Shown: piece by piece, positions 26,239-56,048 of the stretch
How positions within the stretch are numbered: position 1 is the stretch's first letter
Layout of the letters: each line of letters opens with the position of its first letter
IMG/VR virus record: IMGVR_UViG_3300007609_001696
Span: 1 to 64,000 of that record
Direction: 5' to 3' (one strand)
Length of the DNA: 64,000 nucleotides
Origin: a virus
Made by a program: the position numbers and the translations under genes
The notes under the pieces: generated by a model
Told to the model about the DNA's origin: nothing
Database searches by the model: none
What the model saw: the letters and a program-made list of their open reading frames with translations, nothing else

Positions 26239-26966
26239 TTAGCCTTCCAAATGTCGGCATAGTAGCCCTTGCCAGTGGTATCGCCGCCGTCGTTGTCAAC
26301 TTCATTGCCGTTGTATGTAACACCCACAATAGTGTCTTCGCCGTTCAAGTATTCTACTACTTGCAAACGCAGTTTAGCAGGATCAAACTGTTCCCCATTT
26401 GTCAGATGCAGTACTCCATCGAAAAATGTGCCTTTTTCTGAGCTAAACATTTGAGCAACATACTCACTGGGTGCTTCGTCGCAACAGGAGTATTCTTGAA
26501 TCTCGATGTATTCTTCGCCTGAGTTTTCATAGATTTCGTCAGCTAGTGCAGCGACTTCTTGATGTTCCAATACTGTGTCCAGTAACGTTGACTCATAATC
26601 TTCGCCGTCGACTTCGTTGATTTCAATCATGGCACTGTCATAGTCTGCGCCAAATGTATGTTCGAATTCCTCTGGCGGTTCATACCATGGACGAGCATCA
26701 CCATCTTCGTCGATCATAAAATGAGCTTCATCTGGCACATCGTCGATGTAGTCGAAATCATACTCGTCGTCTTCTGAACTTACCATGTAATGCACTAGAT
26801 CAGCGTCGCCGTGTTCTTCTACCACTGGTTTCCAAAAATCGTGTGCTTGTTTACTAACACTCATGTAAGAGGATTCTCCTCCGTATCCATTGATAGTGAT
26901 GCGGTAATAACGATCCGGGCGTTTGATTGCTTGAATAAGTTCTTCTTGCTGTTCTACAGTTGCCAC
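26235..26966 (-). CDS. Highly acidic hypothetical phage protein
   Basis: AGGAG SD; GYGGE, SEKG.FF, GDTTGK motifs. Confidence 0.65.
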   Translation of the reverse strand: MATVEQQEELIQAIKRPDRYYRITINGYGGESSYMSVSKQAHDFWKPVVEEHGDADLVHYMVSSEDDEYDFDYIDDVPDEAHFMIDEDGDARPWYEPPEEFEHTFGADYDSAMIEINEVDGEDYESTLLDTVLEHQEVAALADEIYENSGEEYIEIQEYSCCDEAPSEYVAQMFSSEKGTFFDGVLHLTNGEQFDPAKLRLQVVEYLNGEDTIVGVTYNGNEVDNDGGDTTGKGYYADIWKAN

Positions 26967-27559
26967 TTTATACTCCTACAGTCTGGGTAGCTAAAATCAT
27001 TGTGTTGAAATATTTCTTTTCTGCGCAGTTTGTTGTTGGCTATTACACATTCTTCCGGACGCATGTAATAGTGATAGCCGATCGAAATAGTGCCTTCGAT
27101 CCACGGACTATCTCTCAAGTCTCTGCCATCGTACCTGGCACGACTCAGCCATTCATATGCATCTTTGTTGTCAGTTAGTATAGCACCTCCTAAGCCAATG
27201 TCAAGAGGTTTTCCACGTCCAAAGCTCAAGCATTGAAATTGTCCTGCACGGTACATATTGGGTTCTAATCTTCTAGCACTGTCCCACACAGGCGATGGTG
27301 CCATTTGGTATTCATACTCCCAATCATAATTGCAGTATTCAAAAGGTATGTGCAACTTGTGCAGTGTTTGTGGCACACTCAAATATGTATATGCCGGAAT
27401 CTCCAACGGCTCTAACCATTTCAAGTACCGCAAGCAAAGCTCAATTGCGTGGGTACATCTGTCTGTGGTCACTGCATAAGGTGCCCCAGTGAATTCTGCT
27501 AGTTTAGTTTCAAAATCAAAAATAGCATCAAATGGATCTTTGTAATTAGTTAAATCCAC
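26954..27559 (-). CDS. Short DegT/DnrJ/EryC1/StrS PLP aminotransferase-like protein
   Basis: FE..LA...GA.YA, T.A..L.L, DSA, LSF..GKPL..G.GG; about 200 aa, start approximate. Confidence 0.75.
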   Translation of the reverse strand: MDLTNYKDPFDAIFDFETKLAEFTGAPYAVTTDRCTHAIELCLRYLKWLEPLEIPAYTYLSVPQTLHKLHIPFEYCNYDWEYEYQMAPSPVWDSARRLEPNMYRAGQFQCLSFGRGKPLDIGLGGAILTDNKDAYEWLSRARYDGRDLRDSPWIEGTISIGYHYYMRPEECVIANNKLRRKEIFQHNDFSYPDCRSIKWQL

Positions 27560-28067
27560 CGGGCATAAGTCCTGTGATCTGCAGTGTGTATCTAAAGTCG
27601 GGTCCAAGATTTGCTGCCATGTGCGGCACATCTCCTTGCCAGATTACACAGCTTCCTTTGGTGTATTCCACAAATGGTTTGCTATCTATTTCAAAAATAT
27701 GACCTGGCTTCCAGTCTTCTAAAAAAACCACTGCACGATATACCATGTCGCTGGTAACGCTGTTGTGCTCGCAGTATCTGGCATATGTGTCGCTGTGATA
27801 AGGTAAAATTGTTCCAGGGTCCATTCTATAAAAGCTTGTTCCTGCTTTTTCGAATCCTAGTTCTTGTGCAATCTCAATAGCCCATTTTGGCTGATACCGT
27901 CTAAAATCTACCATCCAACCTGTATCATAGATATCCCCGTAGGTTGCGCTCCATGCTTCTGTGGTTTCTGAATCATTGAACGGTTCTTTGAAGTAATTGA
28001 GAAGTTTAAAGCTTGTGTTGTCGAACTCAGTGTTTACTCGTGAAAAAGTCCAATTGTTATTGTTCAT
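27546..28067 (-). CDS. 2OG-Fe(II) oxygenase-like protein
   Basis: PG..LP.H.D, H.AAN, R..LQITG. Confidence 0.75.
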   Translation of the reverse strand: MNNNNWTFSRVNTEFDNTSFKLLNYFKEPFNDSETTEAWSATYGDIYDTGWMVDFRRYQPKWAIEIAQELGFEKAGTSFYRMDPGTILPYHSDTYARYCEHNSVTSDMVYRAVVFLEDWKPGHIFEIDSKPFVEYTKGSCVIWQGDVPHMAANLGPDFRYTLQITGLMPGGFN

Positions 28068-28947
28068 TGTTTTTTTCCAATGTATACTGGTCTAGACACA
28101 TGTCTTCCAGTGATTTAGTGACTACGTTATATTCGCTGGGTGTATCAACCACGCTCATTGGAGTATCGCCTGGTCTTCTGGGACCAATTACAACAGGAAC
28201 TTTTTCTCCTGTTGCGTGTTGCATAGCTCTAACAACCTCGTGTACACTCTGGCCTTTGGTAGTGCCTAAACTTTCAAACGGTGTATTCTTTGGTCCGCCA
28301 TTGATAGACGCAAGAATACTATTGCATAAATCCACCACATGAATATAATCTCGCACACAAGTGCCATCTGGCGTGTCGTAGTCGTCGCCGTTGACTGTGA
28401 GTGTGTCACGTTTTCCTGCTGCAACTTCTGCAGCCACTCTTATGAGATGAGTTGATTCGCCGTGCTGCGAAAATTCTCCGTCACTGCCGCTTACATTAAA
28501 AAATCTAAAGATAGTAAACGCAGGACAAATCTGCTTGATTACATCTTCTGCAGCTACTTTGCTTCTAGCATATGGACTGTCCATTCCCCATGCACTTGCT
28601 GTGCTGGCAAAAATAAAGTGATCTGTTTGAATTGTACTTGCTACAATAGCAGTGCCCATGATGTTTACACGGTAGAATTCAAACGGATTGATCCAACTGT
28701 CACCAACTGTACTCATGCCAGCCAAGTGAACCACAGCATCATATTTTTTGTTGCTGATGCGTTTAGGAATGGATTGTGTAACATCAAGTTCTGTAAATTT
28801 CTTCACATATGCAGATACATCATTTGATGATTCGTGAATATTTGCATCAACTGCTTCAACTTCAATATTGTTTTGATGCAAAATTTTGCACAAGTGTGCT
28901 CCAATATATCCTGTTGCACCTGTTACTAATACTTTTTTCTTGCTCAT
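28057..28947 (-). CDS. galE: UDP-glucose 4-epimerase
   Basis: TGATGYIG, YARSK, RFFNV, DY.TPDGTCVRDYIHV.DL, RR.GD. Confidence 0.9.
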   Translation of the reverse strand: MSKKKVLVTGATGYIGAHLCKILHQNNIEVEAVDANIHESSNDVSAYVKKFTELDVTQSIPKRISNKKYDAVVHLAGMSTVGDSWINPFEFYRVNIMGTAIVASTIQTDHFIFASTASAWGMDSPYARSKVAAEDVIKQICPAFTIFRFFNVSGSDGEFSQHGESTHLIRVAAEVAAGKRDTLTVNGDDYDTPDGTCVRDYIHVVDLCNSILASINGGPKNTPFESLGTTKGQSVHEVVRAMQHATGEKVPVVIGPRRPGDTPMSVVDTPSEYNVVTKSLEDMCLDQYTLEKNNEQ

Positions 28948-30149
28948 TTGTACTCTGTTCCTGAATGACTAAAATTTCTGTCTGCCACATGATCTCTGTA
29001 GCGATTACCACTTCGCAACCACTGCAATCCGTTGCCCTGCATGATATCTACCATTCGATCAATTGTGCCGTTGTTCCAGTCTGATATTTCGCCCTGCAAC
29101 ACGCTAGGCTCTTCTAGCCCTGCTAAAATCTTACTTACTGCATCCTCCTTGCTCCACGGAACATACAACCGACTAGCATCGTTGCCGAATGTTTCAGGGA
29201 AACTACGATATGCAGGATAAACCACATTACATCCTAGTGCGTCTGCTTCACTGACAGTGTTGCTGACCCAATCCTGTAGCGCACAATTAAACAGTACTTT
29301 ACTATCATTGACTACATTGTAATAATCATTCTTCTGCAAGTTCGCCATAATAGTAAGTTTGCCGTCTGCAACCATCTGAGTGGCACGTTCCAGGTACCGT
29401 GGATTGTTGCTACGCAATGGACCACCACTCAGTACTGCAAACTCAACATCTGGACGCACTGCTTTTACCATCTCAATTACATCCATAAAGAAGTCTGGCT
29501 GTTTTTCTTGGTCAAAGCGTGCTGCAAATACCACACGGTCTTTTCTTTCGGTCCACGGTTTAATACGATTGTTTACACGACTTTGAACCTCTGTTTTGCC
29601 AAAGCTCAAACCCGAGATGTTGTAGATAGGAGCAGTCCAGCCTGCAATCTTCATATGTGCAACCATTTCTTCGTTGGTTGCAAGAATATGTACATTGGGG
29701 ATTTCATTGCACATCTTTTCGTACAAACTCATCCACTTTTCCATACCCCATACATGAACAAAGTCATCTGGGTCAATTGCTTGTGCAAGACAGCGTAGAT
29801 AAATTTTAGGACGCTGTTCTTCCGGTACCTGACACAAAATATAAGGCAGTGCTTCCATACCAGGCTGAAACATGTCTTCAAAAAAGATTGCATCGTCAGC
29901 AGTAATTTCACCGTTGCGATGCATCTGTACTAGATTCATCAATTGGCTCATGCCAAAATAGCTGCGACCGTGTGCGTCTAGTACTTGACCTACCGATATT
30001 GATTTGGTATTATCAATTGTTTCACCTGGTACCACAGTGTAATCAATGCCTCTGCGATTGTACACCTCTGTGCTCCAGTCTTGCAGTTGCAGTGTGTAGC
30101 GTCCTTCGTAAGGCTCTAAGCCCATGTAAAAAAGTTTTCTAAAACTCAT
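28944..30149 (-). CDS. Glycosyltransferase (GT-B, GT4-like)
   Basis: R...EKQP and D-x7-E (QDWVSNTVSEA) motifs. Confidence 0.82.
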   Translation of the reverse strand: MSFRKLFYMGLEPYEGRYTLQLQDWSTEVYNRRGIDYTVVPGETIDNTKSISVGQVLDAHGRSYFGMSQLMNLVQMHRNGEITADDAIFFEDMFQPGMEALPYILCQVPEEQRPKIYLRCLAQAIDPDDFVHVWGMEKWMSLYEKMCNEIPNVHILATNEEMVAHMKIAGWTAPIYNISGLSFGKTEVQSRVNNRIKPWTERKDRVVFAARFDQEKQPDFFMDVIEMVKAVRPDVEFAVLSGGPLRSNNPRYLERATQMVADGKLTIMANLQKNDYYNVVNDSKVLFNCALQDWVSNTVSEADALGCNVVYPAYRSFPETFGNDASRLYVPWSKEDAVSKILAGLEEPSVLQGEISDWNNGTIDRMVDIMQGNGLQWLRSGNRYRDHVADRNFSHSGTEYK

Positions 30150-30436: not shown

Positions 30437-30868
30437 TTAACATCCTACTTCTTCAGCGCCATTAAGCTCGTTGGTTACTGTCTCTTTAGGATAAAAAATT
30501 TCACAACCGTTTTCGTTGTCTTCTGCTACAGAAATTTTTACATCTCTGTTTGGGTATCTGGCTTTAATTTCCGCATACAAGTCGTCTGCAATCATTTCAC
30601 AGCTCTTGTAATCTAGATCAAGTACTGTGGTCGAATGGTCGACTTCTTCGTACAGTCGTTGCAACCAACGTTTGAACTGTATAAACTCGATGTCGCGATC
30701 GTTGTGAAATACTTCAATCCACACACGAAAATGAAAAATATGTCTGTGTGGATATCCTAAAAAGCTCACATCGTCCCAATCGCCTGTGGCAAGTTTAGGA
30801 TCTGTGTCCGCTCCGGGATATTTATGCACGCCTTCTTTGGTAAAAGAAACCCAAATGCTTCGATTCAT
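30437..30868 (-). CDS. Second QueD-like T-fold protein, DpdL-like (candidate CDG decarboxylase)
   Basis: LGYPHRHIF (LxxxHRHxF), RDIEF...K, SCE.IA, V.ED.ENG parallel the PTPS/QueD motif order. Confidence 0.65.
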   Translation of the reverse strand: MNRSIWVSFTKEGVHKYPGADTDPKLATGDWDDVSFLGYPHRHIFHFRVWIEVFHNDRDIEFIQFKRWLQRLYEEVDHSTTVLDLDYKSCEMIADDLYAEIKARYPNRDVKISVAEDNENGCEIFYPKETVTNELNGAEEVGC

Positions 30869-31368
30869 TTTAATACCTCGTCGTTTTTGTATTCTTGCCA
30901 GTCAGTGTATTTAGATCTATCCATTAAGTTGTGTAAATTATGACACCATACACCAGGATTAGTCGCCGCAAAATCCTTGTCATCCAACTTGATCATTGTG
31001 TTGTAATTCCACTGACTGATATAAGGTAATGGAATTCTCAACTGTGGAATAAAATTATTGTGTTCAATCAAACAACTTTCTAAAAAGTCTTCTGCTTGTG
31101 CAATAGGAATATCCAATGTACACAGTATACCCTTGTGCAAAAAATGTGTGATCATAACTTCCCATCTTTCCCACTCTGCGCCAGCTGGATTGAAGCTGTG
31201 ATTAGCGCCAAAGAAGATGTGTTCGCAATTGTGTTCAATGTACATTTGTTCAATGTCAGTTGTATCTTGTATTTCGGTTACAAACAGTGTACGACATCCA
31301 AACGCAGGTGTGCGTTCTACTTCGTATCCTATGAAGAAGTTGGTGTTTTCGTGTCCTTCACGATTCAT
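30865..31368 (-). CDS. Hypothetical protein of the deazaguanine cluster
   Basis: EVE.TPA...TLFV, HIFFGANHSF, TNPGVW; coupled to the DpdL-like gene. Confidence 0.65.
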   Translation of the reverse strand: MNREGHENTNFFIGYEVERTPAFGCRTLFVTEIQDTTDIEQMYIEHNCEHIFFGANHSFNPAGAEWERWEVMITHFLHKGILCTLDIPIAQAEDFLESCLIEHNNFIPQLRIPLPYISQWNYNTMIKLDDKDFAATNPGVWCHNLHNLMDRSKYTDWQEYKNDEVLK

Positions 31369-31580: not shown

Positions 31581-33038
31581 TTATTCCTCCTCAAATAAGG
31601 CACCAAATTGGGTGCTAGCATTTACAGTTTTCTTGCCGACGTTGAGTCTAGTGCCAATCACCTGCATCCAGAATTTGCTGTGCTGATCAATCAATTCCAA
31701 ACTTTTTTCTCTGTCTTGTAAACTGAAAATTTCGTCCACAAGATCTCTGTGTGTAATAGTTTCAAAACGTTCGTCAATCAGCATGTGAGGATATAGTCCA
31801 GAATCGTATTCTCTGTTGCTACGCTGTGTGCTTTCAATGTGCATCCACACATTGTGCGACATCTGTAGCGCATAACTAAAACTATCCCACGAAGTTTTGC
31901 CTTCCTTGCCTATTTTATTTAGATCACCTGGCTTGTATATACAGATATCTTGAATGCTCAAATGATCGCTAATAGGTGATTCCTCAAAACTAGGCAGTAT
32001 GCCCTCGTTGATCACTACATCACCGAACTTGCGACGGTCTGTTGCATATTTTTTATCATCGGCACTTGGACTCATCATGTAACTCCATTTGCCTCTATCT
32101 TCGATTCTAATATTGTGATATATCTGACCATTTGCAGTAGCAAGAAACGGACTAGCACAATCGTATGTGATCATAAAGTTTGGATTGTGATATTTGCGCA
32201 CTGCACGTTGTATGTCTGTTAGCAAACATGCCCACTCTAGTTTGCTAGTGCCTAGGAAATGCATCACATCATGCACGCCTTGTTCTAGCAAACCGTCGTG
32301 AATAAGATGTACAAGCCTGCGCAAGATCAAGTGTACATCGCACATGTTCTGACCACCCATTGCCCAGCCATCAAAGTGTGTTTCTGGGTACTTAGCAGGA
32401 TCACAATAGTCTTTGAATTCTTCATACCAACTGTCAGCATCAGCATGATTGCTGCCTTGTAACACATTCAGTACTTTGAAGTTGCCACGACGGTTAGCCA
32501 TATAGTATTGAGCATTGATGTGTGTTGCATCAACAGCATCTTGATAACTGTAAATACCACTGGCCGCGGCCGCTTTAGGATCTTGAAATGTCCAAGTAGG
32601 AATATCCAGCATCATACCGTAATCCATATACTCTTCCATCCACTCTACTACCAAGCGGCGTTTTTCGGCTGCCTTTGGGCAGTTGGGATTTTTCCAATCA
32701 CCTTCCCATAATCCTTTGGCAATCTGGAATCCGCCCGAATCGCCCAACAACCACGAATTTTCTCTGTCACGCTGGCGCACCATGTTTTCCTTGGCTATTT
32801 CTTTGGCGGTATCAAGGTTTGCATGACCTGCTGAATACAATGCCCACTTGTACTGGAATGCGCCTTCTTGTACATTTAGAAAGTTTAGTGCTTCAACGCT
32901 GCCGAGACCAGCTGGGACCCTTGCAGGATCTACATAGTTTTCTTCACGCTGTTTGCCAATGAAAGTGGCATAAAACCCGCTTATGCTAGGCAAAAACACA
33001 GCATAGTCTTGTTGTGTTGCTGTTAGGTTTTGATTCAT
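31581..33038 (-). CDS. TGT-fold guanine transglycosylase, probably DNA-acting (DpdA-like)
   Basis: DSGGFQ, MMLDIP, VLQG, GWAMGG, HFLG, YDCASP; no TGT zinc-binding motif seen; sits between the clamp gene and que genes. Confidence 0.8.
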   Translation of the reverse strand: MNQNLTATQQDYAVFLPSISGFYATFIGKQREENYVDPARVPAGLGSVEALNFLNVQEGAFQYKWALYSAGHANLDTAKEIAKENMVRQRDRENSWLLGDSGGFQIAKGLWEGDWKNPNCPKAAEKRRLVVEWMEEYMDYGMMLDIPTWTFQDPKAAAASGIYSYQDAVDATHINAQYYMANRRGNFKVLNVLQGSNHADADSWYEEFKDYCDPAKYPETHFDGWAMGGQNMCDVHLILRRLVHLIHDGLLEQGVHDVMHFLGTSKLEWACLLTDIQRAVRKYHNPNFMITYDCASPFLATANGQIYHNIRIEDRGKWSYMMSPSADDKKYATDRRKFGDVVINEGILPSFEESPISDHLSIQDICIYKPGDLNKIGKEGKTSWDSFSYALQMSHNVWMHIESTQRSNREYDSGLYPHMLIDERFETITHRDLVDEIFSLQDREKSLELIDQHSKFWMQVIGTRLNVGKKTVNASTQFGALFEEE

Positions 33039-33769
33039 TACTTGCTTTGTGCAGGCAGAATGTAGTTGTATTCAGCAATACCGCTGTCTACTGTGATCTG
33101 TGCAGCACCTGCATCTGAAAACTTGATGGTAGCATCACCCGGCAACTTAAGAATACTCAGCACCGGTGCTACAGGCCAGTTCCAGCCTTTGCCCAAGTCA
33201 CCGTTCACATCAGCTTCAAACACAAAGTTTCCAGCATGTGTGCTGTGATCGCCAAAGTAAAACTTCAAATCGGCGCCATCAGTTTTGGCTACAAATGTAG
33301 TTTCTTCAGAGTTGGCTTGTGCTTGAAAATGGAATCTTTGTACACTAGCAATGTTGGGTGTTACTTCAACATCCCACTGCACTCCTTTGAATTTCACAGT
33401 TTTGAGTTTTTCGTTGATGATTTCTGCACTCATAAAACGATAGTCGTTTTTAAAGTCTCCAGCAGTGTTTTCAAAATGCAAACCCACAGGCACATCTTCG
33501 CCGTTGCGTTCTTGTGTGTTCACAGAAATTTTAGCATTTTCTTTGTATTCTGGGATGTTCAGCAGAATGTTTAGTTTGTTGAGGTTAGGCATGCCAAATG
33601 TACCAACAAAATCCTCAACTGGTGTTTTGAACTTTCCTTGTACAATCACACTGCGGTCTTCGGCCATTGCATCGATGACAGTTTCTTTGTCGTTGCCTGT
33701 GACTTTGACAGTGTCGATAAATCCCAAACTGTGGGTGTGTTGTACTAGATCTAGTAGGAAATCATTCAT
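33038..33769 (-). CDS. Putative sliding clamp (gp45/PCNA-like)
   Basis: 243 aa with beta-alpha-beta pattern, C-terminal Y.YILP, near polB. Confidence 0.6.
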   Translation of the reverse strand: MNDFLLDLVQHTHSLGFIDTVKVTGNDKETVIDAMAEDRSVIVQGKFKTPVEDFVGTFGMPNLNKLNILLNIPEYKENAKISVNTQERNGEDVPVGLHFENTAGDFKNDYRFMSAEIINEKLKTVKFKGVQWDVEVTPNIASVQRFHFQAQANSEETTFVAKTDGADLKFYFGDHSTHAGNFVFEADVNGDLGKGWNWPVAPVLSILKLPGDATIKFSDAGAAQITVDSGIAEYNYILPAQSK

Positions 33770-33772
33770 TGA

Positions 33773-34711
33773 TTATTTCTCCGTGTTTCTTTGAATTTTT
33801 GCAAGAGTCTGTCCTGCTCGATTGTGCTCCAGTTTGCCGGGCTTTTGTATAATAGCATAACTAAAATTAGGATAATGATCTACAAGTTCAATTATACTGA
33901 ATCCTAATCCATCTGTCAAGGATTTTAGCCTGGTTTTGGTCATGTAGCACTTGAGATTTTGTTCTGCCAAGATACAACTTCCCTGTATCTCGCAATTGTT
34001 GTAGCTGAACGCCATGACGCCGCCCGGTCTCAGCAATTGGTAAAATGTTTTGAACAACTCCACCTGTACACTGTATGGCTTGAATTCAAAGTAGTTTAAC
34101 GCAAAGATAAAGCCAAATTGTTGTTGCGGCAGAATTGAGAAGTCATCGTTGTTGATCACATATGGCCGCATGCGTCTTTGATATTTTTCGTTGAATCTAT
34201 CCATCACTTCGTCCAGCAGTTCTTGATGCCGGTCTACTATGTACAAAGGGTCGCATCCTACCAAGTGCCGGGTCCACTCCTCCATACACGGATTAAGCTG
34301 AAGTCCAGGATAGGTCCAGTCTACATATGGTTTTATTTTTGCAGACAATTCTTTGGTGTACAGATCTGTGCCATACTGACTATTTTGATATCTAGTTTCG
34401 TCGGCATCGCCACTTTGGTAGTATTTTTCGTATGTGCGGTAACTGTCAATGAGATAGTCTTTTTCCAATTCTTTGATAAGATCGTCAAAGTCGTCGAGCA
34501 CATTTTTGCTGTAGTTTCTTATGTTAAAGTAGCTTTGCTCAATGTTTTTTAACTCTTGCTCTATATGATTCACAGAGATATTTAGACCTGGATTTTTAGA
34601 GGTGTGTAATTTTCTACTCAACCCATTGGCCATTTTGCGAATTTGACTCCAGTTTATATCTAAAAAGTCATCTCTTGCACTGATAATTTTGCTTAATTTA
34701 CGTTCTGCCAT
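33773..34711 (-). CDS. Class I SAM-dependent methyltransferase-like protein
   Basis: LP...FGFIFA.NYF, LLRPGG...F; probable start MAERK. Confidence 0.7.
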   Translation of the reverse strand: MAERKLSKIISARDDFLDINWSQIRKMANGLSRKLHTSKNPGLNISVNHIEQELKNIEQSYFNIRNYSKNVLDDFDDLIKELEKDYLIDSYRTYEKYYQSGDADETRYQNSQYGTDLYTKELSAKIKPYVDWTYPGLQLNPCMEEWTRHLVGCDPLYIVDRHQELLDEVMDRFNEKYQRRMRPYVINNDDFSILPQQQFGFIFALNYFEFKPYSVQVELFKTFYQLLRPGGVMAFSYNNCEIQGSCILAEQNLKCYMTKTRLKSLTDGLGFSIIELVDHYPNFSYAIIQKPGKLEHNRAGQTLAKIQRNTEK

Positions 34712-34712
34712 A

Positions 34713-35696
34713 TTAAAACTCAAACAAACTGTCAAAAGTTGTGCTAGTATCGGTCTTTTCTTTGAGATCCCAATCTAGTTCGCCTAATAGATTGTTGACT
34801 TTTGCATCAACAATTGTTTCTGTCATTAGGTCGTCATCAAACGGTAATTCTTTAAACCAATTTGGAATATGTAATTCGTCAATTGGGTATGCTACACTGG
34901 TATAGCCCATGGGATTGTGTTTGAGCTTGCACACAATTGTTTTTTGCCCATCCATTATTTCCATGGAATATTTGTCTCCGTTCATTTCACGCAGACTATT
35001 CCAATTGAGTGCTGCTCTGACGTGGCCCGGCATGTTCACTTTGCCTTTTCTTGCTAATTCATTGCGAAACTTGGTCAAGTTGTTTACACGTTTGGGTGTG
35101 CCTTTTTCCCAACTGGGCATTTGTTTAAATTCCAGTTTAAAGTCACGGATTCGCTCTGTAACATAATCTTCACCTAGATCCATCAGTGTATCCAACAAAA
35201 TACTGCTGAGAAAGTCTTGCATAAACTTTGGTGTGTCCGACCTTTTTAGGTCAAGGCCCATTGCTTTTACCTTGCCTGGCTTTCCGTCTATGTCTTTGCG
35301 CTCGCCTTCGTCATCATAAACCAGTAATGCATAGCGTTTCTTAGTGATAAACAATCCGCTTTCGGCCACAGCTTCTCGTCCACACTGCACAATTTCACCG
35401 TACTTTCTTGGACAAGCAAATGCACGTTTCATGAAGTCAGGAAAGCTCGCAGACACTTGTTCGCCAATTTGATCATACAATTGTACTACTGTGTCTTTGT
35501 CCCAGGTCATGGTGCCTGATTCAACTTCCTTGCGCACAGCCGGCCATGCACTAAAATAGCAGGAATCTGTGTTGTGTAAAAGAATATCATTGCCAAAAAA
35601 GAATGGATCGCCATCAGCAATACTTATATCGTAAACATAATCATCGTCGGTGTTAACAAGCTCTACAGATTTTACTCGTTCTCTGATAGTATCCAT
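34713..35696 (-). CDS. polB: DNA polymerase B, C-terminal fragment preceded by the split-intein C half
   Basis: ...VYDISI...ILLHN|TDSCYF, KKRY, K.MGL..KRSDTP; C-terminal FDSLFEF. Confidence 0.93.
   Translation of the reverse strand: MDTIRERVKSVELVNTDDDYVYDISIADGDPFFFGNDILLHNTDSCYFSAWPAVRKEVESGTMTWDKDTVVQLYDQIGEQVSASFPDFMKRAFACPRKYGEIVQCGREAVAESGLFITKKRYALLVYDDEGERKDIDGKPGKVKAMGLDLKRSDTPKFMQDFLSSILLDTLMDLGEDYVTERIRDFKLEFKQMPSWEKGTPKRVNNLTKFRNELARKGKVNMPGHVRAALNWNSLREMNGDKYSMEIMDGQKTIVCKLKHNPMGYTSVAYPIDELHIPNWFKELPFDDDLMTETIVDAKVNNLLGELDWDLKEKTDTSTTFDSLFEF
35571..35696 (-). mobile_element. Split intein C-fragment (42 aa)
   Basis: Block F VYDISI, block G LLHN, +1 Thr. Confidence 0.9.
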
Positions 35697-36628
35697 TTTT
35701 TGCATTCCTTTAAAATTTTATTGGGATTTTCTAAAAATTCACTTTCCCAAATAACTAAACATTTAATATTTCTTTCAGACAGTAAAAGTTTTATTTTTTG
35801 ACTATCTTCTTTCCATATATCACTGGCAACCTTGTTAACAACAGAATGGTAATAATTTTCAACAAAAAATTTAGGATTGCAGTGCCAGTAATCTCCATTA
35901 TATTCAATTGCTTTGTTGTTGTGCACTATATCATAAAAATTAGCTTTGTTATGGCCGTAGACGCAGTACTGTTTTGTATTGCACGAATAGTCTAAGCTAA
36001 ATCCTAAATATTTTTCTAATTCATCTACAAAAAATTTTTCTGTATTGCTAACATAATTTGTAGTATGTACTCTTTCCTGCAATATTATTACTGCCGTTTC
36101 TGTATCGCAATTATATCTTTTACAAATATTTTCTATAGAGTGTGATTTTTCTTTGCAGATTTCTTTATATTTTTTTGTACCTTGTTCTTTGCCATACTTT
36201 TCTACAAAATAATCTATGGTATTTGTGTATGCTTGTCGCTCGCAATAGTTTTGCCAGCGTATTGTGCCTTCCGCTTCTCCGTGTTTTTTGATTAGATTTT
36301 TCAGTGTAACTGCTCTACTTTTGTTAAAGTCTTCAAAATCTTTATCTGTCCAGCCGTATTTTTCTTTTTTATATTCATAAGAATTAGAATATGCCTGTTT
36401 TTGTTTATATGCCTGCCACCGCAGTTTTCCTTCTTCGACTCCGTGTTTTTTAATTAGATTAGATTCAGTGACGGCTGTATTTTTTGCTAAAGCGTCATCT
36501 ACAAGTTTTGCTTCCGGATAAACTTTTTTGTATTCTCTACCGTTTGCGAATCGTCCTGTGCAATTATATTTGAAATGTGTCCATTGCAATCTTGGGGCTT
36601 CAAAGCCGCATTCTAAACATTTAGGCAT
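35672..36628 (-). CDS. Free-standing homing endonuclease, Vsr-like/EDxHD type, with zinc finger and KxG.EEG repeats
   Basis: CLEC..H..C, repeats, S..E...YD...IEYNGDYWHCNP...D..K...IWE; very AT-rich. Confidence 0.85.
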   Translation of the reverse strand: MPKCLECGFEAPRLQWTHFKYNCTGRFANGREYKKVYPEAKLVDDALAKNTAVTESNLIKKHGVEEGKLRWQAYKQKQAYSNSYEYKKEKYGWTDKDFEDFNKSRAVTLKNLIKKHGEAEGTIRWQNYCERQAYTNTIDYFVEKYGKEQGTKKYKEICKEKSHSIENICKRYNCDTETAVIILQERVHTTNYVSNTEKFFVDELEKYLGFSLDYSCNTKQYCVYGHNKANFYDIVHNNKAIEYNGDYWHCNPKFFVENYYHSVVNKVASDIWKEDSQKIKLLLSERNIKCLVIWESEFLENPNKILKECKKWILSENE

Positions 36629-36630
36629 AT

Positions 36631-36665
36631 GGCGATACTCCTGTTGTCATAAACTATTTATCGCC
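36631..36665 (-). promoter_or_regulatory. Late promoter TAAATA plus a hairpin over the endonuclease initiation region
   Basis: GGCGATA...AGGAG-TATCGCC; TAAATA at 36655-36660. Confidence 0.65.
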
Positions 36666-37028
36666 TAGGACGGTAATTAATAAATCATTTGGTTGCAATT
36701 CAGTTGGTTTAACTTCACATGTAAAACCATCTCTGTCCACAATTAGACTATGATCTTCTGTTACGATAATTTGCTTTCCAGATTCGCTTGTAACTTTATA
36801 TTTTTTCTTTAAAGTTGAATGACGCATAACATACGAAATATTATAAAAGGAAGCCTGATCCTCATAACTATTGTAACCTAACACTTTATGATCATTGTTT
36901 TTAGAAGTAGGAATCGCGTATTCTTTGTTGTTATCTTGAATAACCCTATATTCGATGTTATTAAAAAGTTCTTCGATACTAATTTTGTTGCCGTTTGACA
37001 AAGTTATTAAAGTATTGCCAGTTACACT
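36654..37028 (-). mobile_element. Split intein N-fragment (124 aa)
   Basis: Block A SVTGNTLI directly after YGD, block B VTEDH, then stop. Confidence 0.9.
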
Positions 37029-38822
37029 ATCGCCATATATAACTGCATCGCCAACGTGATTGTATTCACCTACAATCAGTTCATTTGCATATGCATCCAT
37101 GTGCTTGGCAATTTGTCTGCCAGTGAGTGTAGTTGATTGACCAATGCGCTTATCAAAGAATCTACAACCAGGGTTAAGAATAGCACCATACAAACTGTTC
37201 AAGTTAATTTTCTTGACCAGCTGTCTCTTATCCCAAAACTCTCTGTCTTCTGGTGTTTGTGCGTCTTTCTTTTTCTTCTGCAACTCCTTGCGTTCTGCAT
37301 ACCAACGTTCTAGCAGCCCAGGCACAACACCTTGTATATCGTAGCGGAAGATAGTGCCATTTGCACTCAACACCCATGGTTCACTGCTGAGATAGATTAG
37401 TTTATAAATCTCTGCGCCTGTTAGTGTGTCCGATTCGCCGTTTTCCCAGTCTACTGTGATAGGATGAGTGGTGTCTTGTGACATAACATATCCGTATTCT
37501 CTACTGCCAAACTCCCCCTCCCAGGCCTCAGCAAAGCTCTTTTTCTTGGCCATTCTTGACTCAACCATTTCTTCTGTGTAGTCCTGTCGGAGCTGACCAA
37601 GAATGGTTTCGGGTGCCATGTTAAGAGCACGAATCACACTAGGATATAGACTGTTCAAGTCAATACTGCCAATCCATTTGTGCATGCCTTTTTTGGGATA
37701 TGCAACATAAGCACCAGCTGCGGCAGTATTTTCGCCGTGATCCTTGCGATTGGGCACCACCATGCCGCGTTCGTGTGCCTCGTTGATAATGGCTTGTTCA
37801 GTAACAGCAACTGCTCCCATGGTTGTTTGTAGCAACACTGTGTTGGCATGGGCTAGTTCATTTGCAAGGGCTAGAAATTTAAGTTTTTTGTCTAGCTTTC
37901 CTAGTAGAGCAGTATCTTGTCTGTTGTAGTCGATAAACTTTTCAAAATCGTGATTGTACAATTGATCAAGTGTACCTTCATAAGCAACTTTCTTTTCACT
38001 TAGTTCGTGCTCGCCTATGGCATCAAGGCTATAGCTGTGTCGTTCTTCGTAGGTGTATTTTCTGTACAGTTGCATATAGTCCATGTGCACTCTGCCTACT
38101 AGATCAAATGTTTCATTTTCAGCACCATATCTTTCAAAAGTGCGTTTTTTAGGAAACTGATTCCACAAACAAAACTGCCGAGTGTACTCCTTGCCCAGCA
38201 CTTTGGTAATGCGATTCACTGTGTACGGAATATCATATCCTTCGCTGTTCCACCCACTTAGCACATCAGCATCTTCGATCAGTGCTAAAAAAGTTTCCAG
38301 CATGTCTTCTTCGCGGTCAAACATAAAAGTATTGCCAAATTTCTCGGCAATCTGCTGTGCTTCTTGTGCATCTACAGTTTTTGGCGGAATAGCAAGAGTT
38401 ACCAATTGATCTAGCCAGTCTAGATAGACTGTAATAGCTGTGATTTTGTTGAAAGGATCACTGGGCGGCGAAAAGCCTTTGGTGGTATCAAAGTCAGCCT
38501 CAATATCAAAAAAAGCTGTTTGAAGTTCAGGGGCATCGTGGTTATAGTAATTGTTGGCAAGACATCTAAACACTGGATTGATATCACTCTCAAACAGTGC
38601 TTTTTGCCCATGAATTTTCAGTTCTTTGCGAAATTCTTTTTGTGATTTACAACGAACTTGTGTTACGGGATCTCCGTAGATACTGCGATGTTTGCCTTTG
38701 GGATCTGCATAGTAGAAAGTAAATTCTACTGGGTATTCACGAAACTCTCGTTGACCGCGAATGCGTTCCACAATGTGAATAGTGTCTCGATCTCTGTCAA
38801 ACAGAGCGTCAACATATGACAT
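36654..38822 (-). CDS. polB: DNA polymerase B, N-terminal fragment (3'-5' exonuclease + palm) ending in the split-intein N half
   Basis: DIE, GWNS..YD, YN..D, DLNSLYPS, K..LNSLYG, YGD|SVTGNT...TEDH. Confidence 0.95.
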   Translation of the reverse strand: MSYVDALFDRDRDTIHIVERIRGQREFREYPVEFTFYYADPKGKHRSIYGDPVTQVRCKSQKEFRKELKIHGQKALFESDINPVFRCLANNYYNHDAPELQTAFFDIEADFDTTKGFSPPSDPFNKITAITVYLDWLDQLVTLAIPPKTVDAQEAQQIAEKFGNTFMFDREEDMLETFLALIEDADVLSGWNSEGYDIPYTVNRITKVLGKEYTRQFCLWNQFPKKRTFERYGAENETFDLVGRVHMDYMQLYRKYTYEERHSYSLDAIGEHELSEKKVAYEGTLDQLYNHDFEKFIDYNRQDTALLGKLDKKLKFLALANELAHANTVLLQTTMGAVAVTEQAIINEAHERGMVVPNRKDHGENTAAAGAYVAYPKKGMHKWIGSIDLNSLYPSVIRALNMAPETILGQLRQDYTEEMVESRMAKKKSFAEAWEGEFGSREYGYVMSQDTTHPITVDWENGESDTLTGAEIYKLIYLSSEPWVLSANGTIFRYDIQGVVPGLLERWYAERKELQKKKKDAQTPEDREFWDKRQLVKKINLNSLYGAILNPGCRFFDKRIGQSTTLTGRQIAKHMDAYANELIVGEYNHVGDAVIYGDSVTGNTLITLSNGNKISIEELFNNIEYRVIQDNNKEYAIPTSKNNDHKVLGYNSYEDQASFYNISYVMRHSTLKKKYKVTSESGKQIIVTEDHSLIVDRDGFTCEVKPTELQPNDLLITVLGDK

Positions 38823-45646: not shown

Positions 45647-45660
45647 AAATATATTTATGG
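45643..45660. promoter_or_regulatory. 18-bp palindrome containing back-to-back TAAATA motifs and both start codons
   Basis: CCATAAATATATTTATGG. Confidence 0.7.
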
Positions 45661-46826
45661 GCTTTTATTGTGCATTAGCAAACTATGGTATTACAATAGA
45701 TAACGATGATACTTTGATGCCCTGCTGTCAGTACAATCTAAATAAAAGCCAATTGCCCAAGCTATCGCACCGTCAAGCAGCCGACTTTGAAAAAACAGTT
45801 AGGCCTCAAATTATCAAAGATCTAGAGCAAGGTGTGCTTCATGCGGGCTGTGATGTTTGCTGGCATCAGGAAAAAATCAGCGGCAAAAGTTTGCGCACAG
45901 ACTCAAACAAATTCTACACAGATGATCCTCGTGGCATAGTTGACATGGAAGTAAGACTGGGCAATGTGTGCAATTTAAAATGTCCAATGTGTGGTCCTTA
46001 TGCTAGCAGTTTGTGGTATGCAGAAATGTCTAAACATCGAGATCAGTTTATGGAAAACAATTACTATCGATTGATTGACAAAAAAGATCCTGTCGACAGT
46101 CAGTACAAACCAGATCGAGATTATTACACCAGCAAATGGTATGATGAACAAACTGTGTTTGAATTTGTAGATTTGCGTTTGCATAATTTGCGCAAATTAA
46201 ACATCAGCGGAGGCGAGCCGTTTATGTCTGATACCATGCGGTCTATTCTTCAAACACTGTCAGCTCGACAAGATCTGCATCCTGATTTTACAATTCAAAT
46301 CAACACCAACGGCACTGTACTTGATCAAACACACATAGAGTTGTTGCAAAAAATAAAATACAGAGTGAGAATTTGCATAAGCCTGGAAGGTGTTGGCAAA
46401 CACAATGACTACCTAAGACATCCTTCAAACTGGCAGGACATTGACAAAAATATCAAAATTTTATGCGGAATTCGCGACAAACGTATAGAGAAAAATTTTA
46501 GTGTGACATCTCAGCACACCGTTCAGCCAGCAAGCGTGTACAGTTTTTTACCATTGGCAGAGTATTGCTATCAAATGCGTATTCCTATGGTACTGAGTCC
46601 CGTGTACAACAGTAAAATGGATCTGTCTGCTATAAATCAAGATGAAAAAAATAAGGTAAAAAACATACACTGTGATACATGCGACCAAGATACATTGGAA
46701 CGCTTCAAAAGGATAATAAGAAAAATCAATCCTAAAGAACAGTCAAGAAAATCCTACAAAAAATACATTGGGTTTTTGGATAAAATTAGAAACACCAACT
46801 ATGAAAGCTTGTTTGGTCCTTTGTGA
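45657..46826 (+). CDS. Radical SAM protein with N-terminal SPASM/twitch-like domain
   Basis: C..PCC...C..C, CNLKCPMC, GGEPF, TNG, S.EG. Confidence 0.88.
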   Translation: MGFYCALANYGITIDNDDTLMPCCQYNLNKSQLPKLSHRQAADFEKTVRPQIIKDLEQGVLHAGCDVCWHQEKISGKSLRTDSNKFYTDDPRGIVDMEVRLGNVCNLKCPMCGPYASSLWYAEMSKHRDQFMENNYYRLIDKKDPVDSQYKPDRDYYTSKWYDEQTVFEFVDLRLHNLRKLNISGGEPFMSDTMRSILQTLSARQDLHPDFTIQINTNGTVLDQTHIELLQKIKYRVRICISLEGVGKHNDYLRHPSNWQDIDKNIKILCGIRDKRIEKNFSVTSQHTVQPASVYSFLPLAEYCYQMRIPMVLSPVYNSKMDLSAINQDEKNKVKNIHCDTCDQDTLERFKRIIRKINPKEQSRKSYKKYIGFLDKIRNTNYESLFGPL

Positions 46827-53011: not shown

Positions 53012-53803
53012 CTATTTATCGAACAGTCTGAACTCTTGTATACTATTGATGCTGTCGCTCAACAGGATCTGTGACATTTGCACCGAAGCTAGATCAGTGG
53101 CATAAAAATATATCTTTCCGTATGAATACATTTTGTTGGTGAGATTTTCCTGTGCATTGTCGGGAATATATATAGAGTCGATCTGTTTTGCCCATTCCAA
53201 GAAAGCCAGTCCTCGTGTGTAGTAGTCTTGCTTTTTGCTTGTGCTGACATTTACTTTGTAGTTGTATTTGTTGTAGGGCAACTTCTTTTTGTAAGCCACA
53301 TTTACATCACCGTAGGTAACGTGTTCGTTTGGCACAGTCACAGTTCTAAGCCACAAATCAAAGCTGTGTTTTCTTGCAAAATATTTTTCTGTAGCGTGTA
53401 AGAAATTATTCAACACTGCTGGATCGTTGGCGTATATGCTGCACCAGCTGCCTTCGCAACGTATCATTGAATGGTCTTTGTTTTTTCTTGCAAATCGTGC
53501 CAACTGTGCAATCACATTCAAGCACTGAGTATCCGGCGCTGTGTAACCATCTGACATTTCTCTATAAAAAAATCCCCAGCTGAGCTGTCTATCGCTCAGC
53601 ATTGGCAATGAGTCAAAATGTGCTTTGAGTTGCTCTGGGGTTTCCAGTTTCCATTTGTAGCGTCTTATGCCTTTGCAGTCAAGTTGCAACTTGTAGAGAT
53701 ATTTGTTGTAGAAAGGCTTTTCTGTTTGCTCAATCTTTAGGCTTAAACTGGTCCAGTACGATAAGTCCTGCTCCGTCCACATTTGGTACTGCGGTGTCTT
53801 CAT
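53012..53803 (-). CDS. Hypothetical protein
   Basis: Probable start MKTPQY after GAGG; overlaps the clpA 3' end. Confidence 0.55.
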   Translation of the reverse strand: MKTPQYQMWTEQDLSYWTSLSLKIEQTEKPFYNKYLYKLQLDCKGIRRYKWKLETPEQLKAHFDSLPMLSDRQLSWGFFYREMSDGYTAPDTQCLNVIAQLARFARKNKDHSMIRCEGSWCSIYANDPAVLNNFLHATEKYFARKHSFDLWLRTVTVPNEHVTYGDVNVAYKKKLPYNKYNYKVNVSTSKKQDYYTRGLAFLEWAKQIDSIYIPDNAQENLTNKMYSYGKIYFYATDLASVQMSQILLSDSINSIQEFRLFDK

Positions 53804-56048
53804 AAAATACCTCTGCAATTTTGTTTTGTGTTAGTGTAACTTTGTCATCTTCTGCTTCCACAGACACAGATGTACCTTCACTGATTTCGCCCGACACAAT
53901 CATCTTACTCAGCGGTACTTTGATTTTATCACTGATGATTCTTGTCAATGGCCGCGCACCCATTTTAGGATCAAACCCATTGTTCAGCAAGTATTCTCTG
54001 CCGCTTTGTTCTAGATGGATTCTAATGCCTTTGTCATTGAGCAACATGTTGACTTCGTCTACAAATTTGTCTACGATACTGCTCATTGCATCTCTTTCTA
54101 GATAGTTGAACTTGTACACCGCGTCCAATCTGTTTCTAAACTCAGGACGGAAATAGTCTTTTACAGCACGATCATCTTCGCCAGTTTTTTGCAAATCTCT
54201 ACCAAAGCCAATAGCATTGCGTTCGTTGTCGGCTGCGCCTAGATTCGAAGTCATAAGAATAATACAATTTCGGCAATCTGCTTTTTTGCCGTTGCTGCTA
54301 GAAATAAAACCTTCATCCATCATTTGCAACAGTACATTGCTCACATCCGGGTGTGCCTTTTCCACTTCGTCAAACAAGATTATACTGTTTGGATTTTGTT
54401 CAATGTCACTGACCAATGCACCCCCTGAAAGATTGCTGTCTTCAAATCCAACATACCCAGGAGGAGCTCCAATCAATCTTGCTATAGTATGCTTTTCTTG
54501 AAATTCGCTCATGTCATAGCGCAGCAGTTTCATGCTCATGTGTTCGCTCAACTGTTTGGCTAGTTCTGTTTTACCAGTGCCTGTTGGTCCTAGAAAAAGA
54601 AAGCTACCAATTGGCTTGTCATGTGACTTTAGTCCGGCTTTGGCAACAAAAATCTTTTCTACTACACCATCTACCACATGATCCTGTCCGTACACACGTT
54701 GTTTAATTTGCGCATCTAGATCTTTGATGCTGCCGTCTTGCTTGTCCAAGTCCAACTGATCTATGGGAATTCTCACAATTCTGCTTACTTCTGCCAGCAC
54801 TTCCTTTTTGCCAACTGAGAAATTGGTGTATCCTTGTTTTTTTAACTTCGCTGCTGCACTGTCAATCAAATCAATGGCTTTGTCTGGCAATTTTTTATCT
54901 GCCATGTATCTCACGCTGTAATCCACTGCCGATTCTACTGCATGGTTTGTGATGTCGCATCCATGAAATTCGTCAAAGTATTTTTTGAGTCCCCGTAGAA
55001 TATCCTTGGCTACACTGGGTGTAGGCTCGTCTACTGTGAGCCTGTAAAAACGTCTTGTGAGTGCACGATCTTTTTCAAAACTTTGAGAATATTCTTCCCA
55101 TGTGGTACTGGCAATTACTTTTACTTTGCCTTTGGATATAGCCGGCTTCAGCATGTTGGCCATGTCCAAGCTAGACTCTTTGCCAGCTCCTGCACCACGC
55201 ATTTGATGTGCTTCGTCGATAAAAAGAATACAATTTTTACGACTGATCAGTGCATTGATAACTTCTGTGATTTTTTCTTCAAATTCTCCACGATATTTAC
55301 TGCCAGCCAGCAGTGTTCCAACATCGAGACTGTACACTGTGTAGCTATTGAGGTAATCTGGCACGTTGTTGGCCACAACATCTCTGGCCAATCCTTCAGC
55401 AAGTGCAGTTTTGCCCACACCTGGATCGCCTACTAGTAAAACATTGTTTTTGTTTCTCTTGCCCAGCACTTGCACCATTTCGTCAATTTCGGCATCTCTG
55501 CCAATCACTGGATCAATTTCCCCTGCCAGCACTAGATCATTGAGATTGGTGCAGTATTCGTCAAGGATTTTTTCTGCTTGTTGCGGATCATATTTTTCCA
55601 GTGAAGCAACTTTTTGCTCTCTGTAGTTTTTGTTGTAGTATTTTACAAACTGCTCGCGAATCATACCATATTTTTGGAAAATATAGTTTGAATAACTTTT
55701 GTCTTCTCCGGTGATTGCAAGGAAAATATCAGCCGGCTGTACATGATTCCTGCCGTGGAATATAACCTGTGTAAACGCACGATTAAACACACGCTCTAAT
55801 GCATAGGTCTTTTGAGCTTGCACATCCTGTTCGGCTACAAGATAATATTGCTTTTTAAGCCAAACATCCAATTCTATCAGCATACTGTCAACATCACATC
55901 CAAAATCTTTGACACACTTGTTGAAATTGTCAAAATTCAACAATGCCAGTGTGAGATGCTCTACAGTAACATATTTGTGTTTTAAATTATCTGCCATGTT
56001 GGCAGCGTCTTTGATTATTTGTTCAACTTCAGGACTTGATGTTAGCAT
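53730..56048 (-). CDS. clpA: ATP-dependent Clp protease ATP-binding subunit
   Basis: Clp N-domain, two AAA modules (GDPGVGKT, GPTGTGKT), no ClpB M-domain, IGF loop. Confidence 0.9.
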   Translation of the reverse strand: MLTSSPEVEQIIKDAANMADNLKHKYVTVEHLTLALLNFDNFNKCVKDFGCDVDSMLIELDVWLKKQYYLVAEQDVQAQKTYALERVFNRAFTQVIFHGRNHVQPADIFLAITGEDKSYSNYIFQKYGMIREQFVKYYNKNYREQKVASLEKYDPQQAEKILDEYCTNLNDLVLAGEIDPVIGRDAEIDEMVQVLGKRNKNNVLLVGDPGVGKTALAEGLARDVVANNVPDYLNSYTVYSLDVGTLLAGSKYRGEFEEKITEVINALISRKNCILFIDEAHQMRGAGAGKESSLDMANMLKPAISKGKVKVIASTTWEEYSQSFEKDRALTRRFYRLTVDEPTPSVAKDILRGLKKYFDEFHGCDITNHAVESAVDYSVRYMADKKLPDKAIDLIDSAAAKLKKQGYTNFSVGKKEVLAEVSRIVRIPIDQLDLDKQDGSIKDLDAQIKQRVYGQDHVVDGVVEKIFVAKAGLKSHDKPIGSFLFLGPTGTGKTELAKQLSEHMSMKLLRYDMSEFQEKHTIARLIGAPPGYVGFEDSNLSGGALVSDIEQNPNSIILFDEVEKAHPDVSNVLLQMMDEGFISSSNGKKADCRNCIILMTSNLGAADNERNAIGFGRDLQKTGEDDRAVKDYFRPEFRNRLDAVYKFNYLERDAMSSIVDKFVDEVNMLLNDKGIRIHLEQSGREYLLNNGFDPKMGARPLTRIISDKIKVPLSKMIVSGEISEGTSVSVEAEDDKVTLTQNKIAEVFYEDTAVPNVDGAGLIVLDQFKPKD

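Follow-up and report, generated by a model that had tools for sequence, protein, structure and literature searches.

In the window analysed here, the first 64 kb (64,000 nucleotides) of the 83,266-base virus record IMGVR_UViG_3300007609_001696, a 485-amino-acid (aa) TGT-like protein ends in a short peptide that closely matches the end of the viral family-B DNA polymerase (PolB), and its gene adjoins that of a putative gp45-type sliding clamp. We propose that the enzyme tail docks on the same sliding clamp as the polymerase, so that DNA would be modified while it is being copied, a reading that the sequence comparisons below make fairly probable. The peptide would then be a clamp-docking element that makes a DNA base-exchange enzyme, from an unnamed TGT branch, a client of a new class.

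The C-terminal peptide shared by the polymerase and the TGT-like enzyme

An earlier note on this DNA had reported that the two proteins share a C-terminal motif, and both ends were read again in the sequence. The open reading frame (ORF) 34713-35705 (- strand), encoding the C-terminal part of PolB, ends with KTDTSTTFDSLFEF, the last residues being TSTTFDSLFEF. The ORF 31581-33038 (- strand), encoding the TGT-like protein, ends with NASTQFGALFEEE, of which ASTQFGALFEEE forms the tail. The pattern S-T-x-F-x-x-L-F-E, given in the same note for both, describes the window's own subfamily and fails as a family-wide rule. The core kept across the family consists of a hydrophobic-aromatic dipeptide ([LIMF][FW]) and, after it, an acidic or polar residue, and often lies 25-35 residues from the end. 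The linker just before the enzyme tail, VGKKTVN, is rich in Lys, Asn, Ser and Thr. The C-terminus of T4 gp43 reads KASLDFLFG.

By 8-mer scoring with BLOSUM62, the PolB tail was compared with the final 20 residues encoded by each of the 122 other ORFs in the contig. The TGT-like protein tied with one radical-SAM protein at the top score of 25, with the next best at 20 and a median of 6, and only 5 of the 25,844 8-mers anywhere in the contig's ORFs reached 25. The tail match exceeds chance. The radical-SAM protein (45657-46826, + strand) ends with NTNYESLFGPL and was considered as a third clamp client. It was set aside, since relatives of 25-30% identity in other contigs end similarly and the tail thus looks intrinsic to that family. 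The protein belongs to a family of twitch-domain radical-SAM paralogues (NF033640, 3e-59), with a further member at 79636-80838 of the contig and others at 46744-89370 of G001, a 330-kb relative that is 93% complete. At least 8 copies are present in G001, and an F/Y-x-x-[LI]-F-like tail is seen on several of the paralogues. No informative annotation was obtained for other proteins of G001 or the contig with motif-like tails.

Conservation of the tail among homologues had been named in the earlier note as a check on its proposal, and the tail was found to be kept down to 36% identity. Among 8000 candidates scored for the family of the 485-aa protein, 7396 had an E value no higher than 0.001. 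Two groups were scored for a strict motif ([FY]xx[LIMF][FW] followed by a polar residue or the end) and for a looser core ([LIMF][FW]-polar): group 1, the 120 best hits with 64-100% identity, and group 2, 120 hits around the protein of Pseudomonas jumbo phage PA5oct. The strict motif was present within the last 15 residues in 63/120 and within the last 50 residues in 97/120 members of group 1; the corresponding counts in group 2 were 0/120 and 61/120. The looser core was found in 17 of the remaining 23 sequences of group 1 and 51 of the remaining 59 of group 2, leaving 6/120 and 8/120, respectively, with no core at all by these expressions. In most of the 23 sequences in group 1 the first motif is degenerate (e.g. 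TNYxKLMEEE) and is joined by an extension with LWE at its end. In alignment A2, 63 sequences with 34-76% identity to the window's enzyme, the tail residue F482 is nearly invariant. The PA5oct tails read HFDSLFGW in PolB and NSFNSLFDVD, followed by an acidic extension, in the enzyme.

The enzyme tail behaves as a short linear motif. Both the length and the composition of the stretch that links it to the conserved ISFG/VGKK anchor are variable, and between 0 and about 35 residues separate the motif from the C-terminus. In many homologues (P0241-P0360, L105-L184 and part of L061-L080) the motif is internal and a 25-35-residue acidic extension comes after it; the window's own enzyme lacks this extension. 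Another conserved element within it, approximately (M/F)A(D/S)(L/M)(N/D)DEKLxxLE or EEHNLExLEDEQ, may be a second docking site. The TGT-like protein of Sinorhizobium phage Phosso (L086 7968-12169; 549 aa, 27% identity) ends with KIVEGLF.

Both tails were also read from each of 160 related loci, taken with up to 10 kb on each side. PolB tails in related loci are kept as T-F-x-x-L-F-[ED]-[WF]; within the window's subfamily, the consensus tails are K-Q-x-[TN]-T-F-[NS]-[SN]-L-F-[ED] for PolB and N-A-S-T-[KY]-F-x-x-L-F-E for the enzyme. The enzyme tail follows lineage-specific changes of the polymerase tail, as in these pairs:

L173, L176, L184 (both tails at the very end): PolB ALQAFFEF, ALDEFFEF, VMDNFFEF; enzyme VLNEFFEF, VLDEFFEF, VMDTFFEF
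L152 and kin: PolB ALNEFFEF; enzyme LDTSFFEE and extension
L108 and kin: PolB GFIDDLFS; enzyme SKDLFDT or SKDIFDT and extension
L113 and kin: PolB TFHSLFEF; enzyme TFGALFET
L148: PolB ETLFDFSA; enzyme DTLFDHSA
L106, L112: PolB TLFDFSAI; enzyme ALFDWDSI, NLFDWDAI

Besides PolB, the TGT-like proteins are the only ones to end in this way in the FFEF lineages, among the ORFs in roughly ±10 kb around the gene. Over 115 distinct pairs, the mean best 8-mer score was 20.25 for tails of the same genome, 17.50 for cross-genome pairs and 13.2 for shuffled own tails, and the observed own-genome mean was reached by 0 of 5000 permutations. Because this permutation test ignores relatedness, changes were counted on a tree built from enzyme cores with the tails removed, in which the tail classes of L053, L055 and L079 were assigned by eye. 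L018, with a truncated PolB ORF, was excluded from the tree counts and kept among the 115 pairs. Among 121 distinct rows, the FF form was present in PolB in 16, in the enzyme in 17 and in both in 16. The FF state changes 2 times on the tree in PolB and 3 times in the enzyme, and both of the two independent contrasts (2/2) go in the same direction. One of the two FF events (L054/L055) falls inside the window's own subfamily. Clamp residue V43 (33641-33643) is Phe in both FF lineages (the L055 row and 12/15 rows of the other clade) and in 0/105 other rows; in the control for this column, 2/55 rows were equally extreme. Position 43 is a candidate pocket residue, as a lead only.

The putative clamp, the TGT-like enzyme and their locus

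The genes and peptides concerned are the following, all on the - strand like the genes around them:

36654..38822, - strand: N-terminal part of PolB, ending in an intein N-half (DNA_pol_B 6e-28, exonuclease domain 4.4e-20, Intein_splicing 1.1e-9, phrog_262 1.3e-145)
35672..36628, - strand: endonuclease-like ORF between the polymerase halves (phrog_22677 5e-53)
34713..35705, - strand: C-terminal part of PolB, beginning with an intein C-half (phrog_1918 3.7e-50, phrog_262 (DNA polymerase) 7.9e-49, Intein_splicing at residues 4-45)
34716..34748, - strand: PolB C-terminal tail TSTTFDSLFEF, presumed clamp-binding epitope
33773..34735, - strand: methyltransferase-like ORF, 320 aa, between the C-terminal part of PolB and the clamp gene (Pfam Methyltransf_23/12/25, below cut-off)
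33038..33769, - strand: putative divergent gp45/PCNA-type sliding clamp, 243 aa (phrog_12062, function unknown, 2.8e-39)
31581..33038, - strand: TGT-superfamily enzyme, DpdA-like candidate DNA base-exchange enzyme, 485 aa
31584..31619, - strand: C-terminal tail of the TGT-like enzyme, ASTQFGALFEEE, proposed clamp-docking peptide
30437..31368, - strand: 167-aa ORF of unknown function (P167) and QueD/PTPS-like ORF, 143 aa (weak PTPS: Pfam 0.0077, NCBIfam QueD 0.12)

The product of 33038-33769 had been taken for a clamp in the earlier note, and profile-profile comparison and an ESM Atlas look-up agree in pointing to a gp45-like protein. Judged by these comparisons, the 243-aa protein is probably a divergent gp45-type clamp. 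A library-wide search gave 669 representatives at E up to 0.001; the family alignment (A1) held 119 sequences and was compared with an alignment (A4) of 12 annotated gp45 proteins, T4 gp45 and 11 others of 25-60% identity. By hhalign, A1 matched A4 with 86.7% probability (E 4.4e-6) over 177 collinear columns (A1 35-234, gp45 30-210), and T4 gp45 alone with 12%. The exact 243-aa protein is present in the ESM Atlas with a model of pTM 0.90, and its own cluster is automatically named PCNA-domain-containing. The Atlas features search returned a cluster with gp45-slide_C in 10% of its members (score 0.95, 202/256 features common), and the structure search another cluster, also with gp45-slide_C in 10% of members, at TM 0.58/0.72 over 171 residues.

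The curated clamp models PF09116, PF02916, PF00705 and PF00712 did not match the 243-aa protein, and its comparison with the PDB by sequence and with NCBIfam returned nothing. A Pfam search over the 119 family members gave a weak PCNA_N match (0.028) in 1/119, and no internal repeat was detectable in the protein by hhalign (0.5%). Homologues are found in 71 phage records, where they are labelled 'proliferating cell nuclear antigen' in PAC2 and 'DNA polymerase III sliding clamp beta' in Phosso. PA5oct (37.6% identity) and G001 (56%) each encode a homologue; in neither genome was a Pfam clamp match found at family cut-off, the sole one being a sub-threshold 14.4-bit DNA_PPF match in G001. A gp44-like clamp loader is encoded at 70802-71725 of the contig (phrog_168, 3.7e-79). 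A 232-aa ORF beside this loader was considered as the real clamp and rejected, with no Pfam, PHROG or NCBIfam match and no homologue in G001 or among the 18 PA5oct proteins compared. The Phosso clamp homologue lies elsewhere in that genome, about 170 kb from the TGT-like gene; the 240-aa 'virion structural protein' upstream of the Phosso TGT-like gene is not related to the clamp family (0.14% by hhalign).

By its motifs and profile matches, the 485-aa protein probably belongs to a remote, previously unnamed branch of the TGT superfamily. The tRNA-TGT-like DSGGFQ motif pointed out in the earlier note is indeed present, as GDSGGFQ at residues 99-105, and D100, S101, G103 and Q105 (DSGGFQ), D145 (LDIPT) and D293 (YDCASP) are invariant in A2; DSGGFQ includes the catalytic Asp, and (F/Y)DC..P is the motif of the Asp nucleophile. 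Vibrio phage GR11A encodes a 'TGT domain-containing protein' to which hhalign related the 485-aa protein at 95.4% (E 1.8e-8). That protein itself matches archaeal TgtA TIGR00432 (2.4e-10) and PF01702 (2.6e-5), so the link of the 485-aa protein is indirect. Alignment with the Tgt of E. coli is weak (19%, E 1.2e-3) and nevertheless pairs, in order, LNVLQGS/FGIIQGS, DGWAMGG/DGYAVGG, HFLGTS/YLMGVG and YDCASPFLATANG/FDCVMPTRNARNG. In the Atlas features search, PF01702 was found in 17% of the members of 8/30 nearest clusters, with a score of 0.94.

The enzyme most likely works like DpdA, as a DNA guanine transglycosylase, and would probably replace DNA guanine by a modified base, although it is not detectably placed in a known DpdA subfamily. 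Among genes for 7-deazaguanine precursors, the window, from a contig that covers part of a genome, holds only the weak QueD/PTPS-like gene; in PA5oct, an annotated QueE lies 3 kb downstream. PA5oct DNA resists restriction at G-containing sites, suggesting modified G (PMC12191111), and a system for the synthesis/incorporation of deazaguanine has been described for this phage (PMC7824862).

By protein search the contig is a PA5oct-like jumbo phage: the nearest named phages are PA5oct and its kin (36% identity for the 485-aa protein), followed by Phosso and Vibrio phage 2.275.O. When the phage collection was searched by megablast with 8 kb of the window, no near-identical DNA was found. The overlap between the start of the TGT-like gene and the upstream stop, placed at 33038 in the earlier note, was confirmed. 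The - strand reads caaagcaag TAATG aatcaa, with TAATG at 33036-33040, where one base belongs both to the stop codon of the 243-aa ORF and to the ATG that opens the TGT-like ORF. Such an overlap of the clamp and enzyme genes is seen here and in many relatives, and the TGT-like gene is possibly coupled translationally to the clamp gene.

Most of the related loci L001-L080 keep the order PolB, clamp, TGT-like, P167 and QueD-like. A clamp homologue was found in 76 of these 80 loci; in the other 4, the TGT-like gene begins <700 bases from the locus start. PA5oct and Vibrio phage 2.275.O have the same gene arrangement, the order in PA5oct being split PolB, endonuclease, 248-aa protein, small ORF and 540-aa TGT-like protein. 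The methyltransferase-like ORF at 33773-34735 has a homologue in 0 of the 80 loci and therefore looks like a recent insertion. A DUF465 ORF lies between the 485-aa and the 167-aa ORFs in the gene list. Sugar-tailoring genes follow at 26954-30149, just downstream of the TGT-like/QueD-like block; their products are a GT1 glycosyltransferase, an NAD-dependent epimerase and a DegT-like aminotransferase.

In the polymerase, the intein halves mark a break at YGD|TDS, with the separate endonuclease-like ORF in between (34713-38822). PA5oct PolB is likewise split, around a 'Hef-like homing endonuclease'; in most related loci PolB is one contiguous ORF, and two adjacent PolB ORFs are present in L026 and L080. 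The window also encodes a ClpB/ClpA-like protein with two AAA+ domains (53730-56048; AAA_2 4.3e-54, ClpB_D2-small 7.1e-22).

Proposed mechanism and competing explanations

The replication module encodes, in order, a T4-type family-B polymerase (interrupted by an intein together with an endonuclease gene), a putative gp45-type clamp and the TGT-superfamily enzyme. In the proposed mechanism, the enzyme tail, with its hydrophobic-aromatic core, acidic flanks and variable linker, would be of the same kind as the clamp-binding epitope of the polymerase and would dock the enzyme onto a free clamp protomer. The base exchanger would thereby be held on new duplex DNA at or just behind the fork, and such tethering would favour dense modification. 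In T4, gp43, gp33 and gp55 bind gp45 through interchangeable hydrophobic-acidic C-termini, and the gp55 epitope sits on a divergent linker and still functions when made internal (PMC2988020). Because the enzyme tail copies the T4-type PolB tail and follows its lineage changes, docking of both tails on the same clamp site would be the simplest reading. From sequence comparison we infer the binding of the tail to the clamp, and likewise the identity of the inserted base and the timing of modification relative to replication. Co-replicative action, and DNA rather than tRNA as the likely substrate, are supported indirectly by the T4 precedent, the restriction resistance of PA5oct and the DpdA-clamp gene pair of 9g-like phages described below. 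No paper linking DpdA or TGT with a clamp was found in a literature search that was judged partly by titles and abstracts and covered journals open without subscription.

Several observations weigh against clamp docking by a TGT-type enzyme. The 243-aa protein falls short of 95% by hhalign, and no clamp match was obtained in Pfam, in PDB profile searches or when the A1 profile was run against the T4 genome. Its PA5oct homologue bears the label 'structural protein', based on mass spectrometry of virions; this label is not specific, since RNase H has the same mass-spectrometry flag. The 485-aa protein has no direct match in Pfam, PHROG, the PDB (by sequence or profile), PADLOC or NCBIfam, and its family alignment A2 showed no detectable relation to the DpdA of phage 9g by hhalign (0.15%). 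The lack of a Pfam match says little, because 9g DpdA itself has none either. The co-variation of the tails rests on about two independent events, for which the sign test gives p = 0.5 and cannot reach significance. Some loci also depart from it: the motif is missing in L172, the enzyme has MWG while PolB keeps LF in L154, L164, L167, L170 and L171, and the enzyme has FF with LF in PolB in L147. The second element in the acidic extension could be the real interaction site.

Co-variation and conservation show a shared constraint only and leave the identity of the partner to other evidence. Both tails might bind a common partner other than the clamp, such as a single-strand-binding protein, the helicase-primase or the clamp loader, which would place the enzyme at the replisome and not on the clamp. 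Phosso fits such an arrangement in that its TGT-like gene lies directly before primase and DnaB-like helicase genes and far from the clamp homologue. We regard this as unlikely, since the homologous position on T4 gp43 is a documented gp45-binding epitope (PMC2988020), the enzyme gene is joined to the clamp gene by the start/stop overlap here and in many relatives, and the pairing of DpdA with a clamp is repeated in 9g-like phages. An explanation without any shared partner, by chance, by a compositional habit of phage C-termini or by a role of the tail within the enzyme's own fold, would accommodate the equal score of the radical-SAM protein at 45657-46826, whose tail is probably intrinsic to its own family, and the internal position of the motif in many homologues, which is compatible with a structural role. 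It appears quite improbable given that the motif is kept at 36% identity while the flanking linker is not, that the L-to-F switch occurs in parallel in both proteins in two separate lineages, and that own-genome tails outscore cross-genome and shuffled ones.

The least plausible of the explanations, with a very small chance in our estimate, is that the tail is a degradation or targeting tag, read by a phage Clp-type ATPase or during packaging, that coordinates the levels or location of polymerase and enzyme. The ClpB/ClpA-like double-AAA protein at 53730-56048 could serve the former, and the detection of the PA5oct clamp homologue and RNase H by virion mass spectrometry is in line with the latter. 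No precedent for such a tag turned up, in literature that was not searched for one, and the homologous function of the polymerase tail is well supported in T4 (PMC2988020). Docking of the enzyme tail on the clamp thus remains the preferred reading.

The 9g-like phages and comparison with known systems

An independent parallel comes from the unrelated 9g-like phages, whose DNA carries deoxyarchaeosine (PMC5567051). Consecutive genes of phage 9g (L199 36-3960) encode the DNA polymerase (gp01), a 'DNA polymerase processivity factor, replicative clamp' (gp02) and a DpdA-type transglycosylase (gp03), followed by FolE, QueD and QueE genes. The clamp label is that of the record itself, and Pfam gives no confirmation of it. 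The 9g DpdA ends with ERLQDLFDE. In 17 related viral loci (L200-L216, 40-100% identity), an LF or FF dipeptide lies within the last three residues of DpdA in 17/17 and the form Q/H-x-L-F is present in 15/17, the tails being LQDLFDE, LHDLFD, VQELF, NQELF, EQRLF, TPGLF and RQGFF. A clamp homologue adjoins DpdA in 16/17 loci. As a lead, this suggests that the DpdA-clamp pairing is not peculiar to one phage group. The 9g helicase (L199 9945-11948) ends with DFDDDIPF, which hints at another docking peptide and which we take to resemble the acidic-hydrophobic tail of bacterial single-strand-binding protein (SSB).

Tethering to the clamp may be general among phage enzymes of DNA base exchange and would then have evolved at least twice, an extension that we put forward tentatively and with somewhat less than even confidence. 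Its two origins would be the PA5oct-like jumbo phages, where the clamp is of the gp45 type and the tail, F-x-x-L-F-[DE], is copied from PolB, and the 9g-like Queuovirinae, where DpdA1 has a Q-x-L-F tail and its gene lies next to that of the annotated replicative clamp; this division is a possibility held with equal reserve. If clamp tethering were general, 7-deazaguanine insertion would be coupled to replication and not simply follow it, and the strength or presence of the tether would help to set the fraction of guanine replaced. In PMC10516641, this insertion is treated as a post-replication event and the word 'clamp' occurs 0 times; guanine replacement is given there as ranging from under 0.1% to 100%. 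Clamp docking would bear on the way in which DNA transglycosylases reach their substrate and on the wide variation in guanine replacement. The docking peptide, if confirmed, would offer a concrete, testable mechanism by which base exchange is coupled to the fork, bring a DNA-hypermodifying enzyme among the clients of phage clamps and provide a sequence signature separating DNA-acting from tRNA-acting TGT-fold enzymes in metagenomes. The TGT-like family is abundant, and PA5oct is a cultivable model.

The arrangement resembles that of T4/RB69 gp43, gp33 and gp55 in that a short hydrophobic-acidic C-terminal segment on a divergent linker is common to the polymerase and a non-polymerase protein. 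Unlike in T4/RB69, the additional client is a DNA-modifying enzyme and not a transcription factor, the motif is often internal with an acidic extension, and the clamp is too divergent for Pfam. With DpdA (DpdA1-4, bDpdA) the enzyme has in common the TGT catalytic signatures, a neighbourhood with weakly matched QueD-like genes (and with QueE in PA5oct) and, in PA5oct, a phage DNA that probably contains modified G. It differs in having no sequence relation to 9g DpdA and no PADLOC or NCBIfam match, and in being about 170 residues longer (485 versus 317 aa) and carrying the tail. The DSGGFQ, GS, GG, G-G and (F/Y)DC..P motifs occur in the same order as in bacterial Tgt and archaeal TgtA, whereas the enzyme lies below every curated family threshold, is encoded in a replication module with its gene coupled, as proposed, to that of the clamp, and has a docking-type C-terminal peptide.

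A phage example of a DNA modifier tethered to the sliding clamp by a short peptide was not found in the literature searched. In eukaryotes, DNMT1 and UNG2 are replication-coupled DNA modifiers bound to PCNA through a PIP box. The proposed system would be like these in that a DNA-modifying or -editing enzyme is tethered to the clamp by a short peptide and acts on nascent DNA, and unlike them in the clamp family, the motif and the chemistry.

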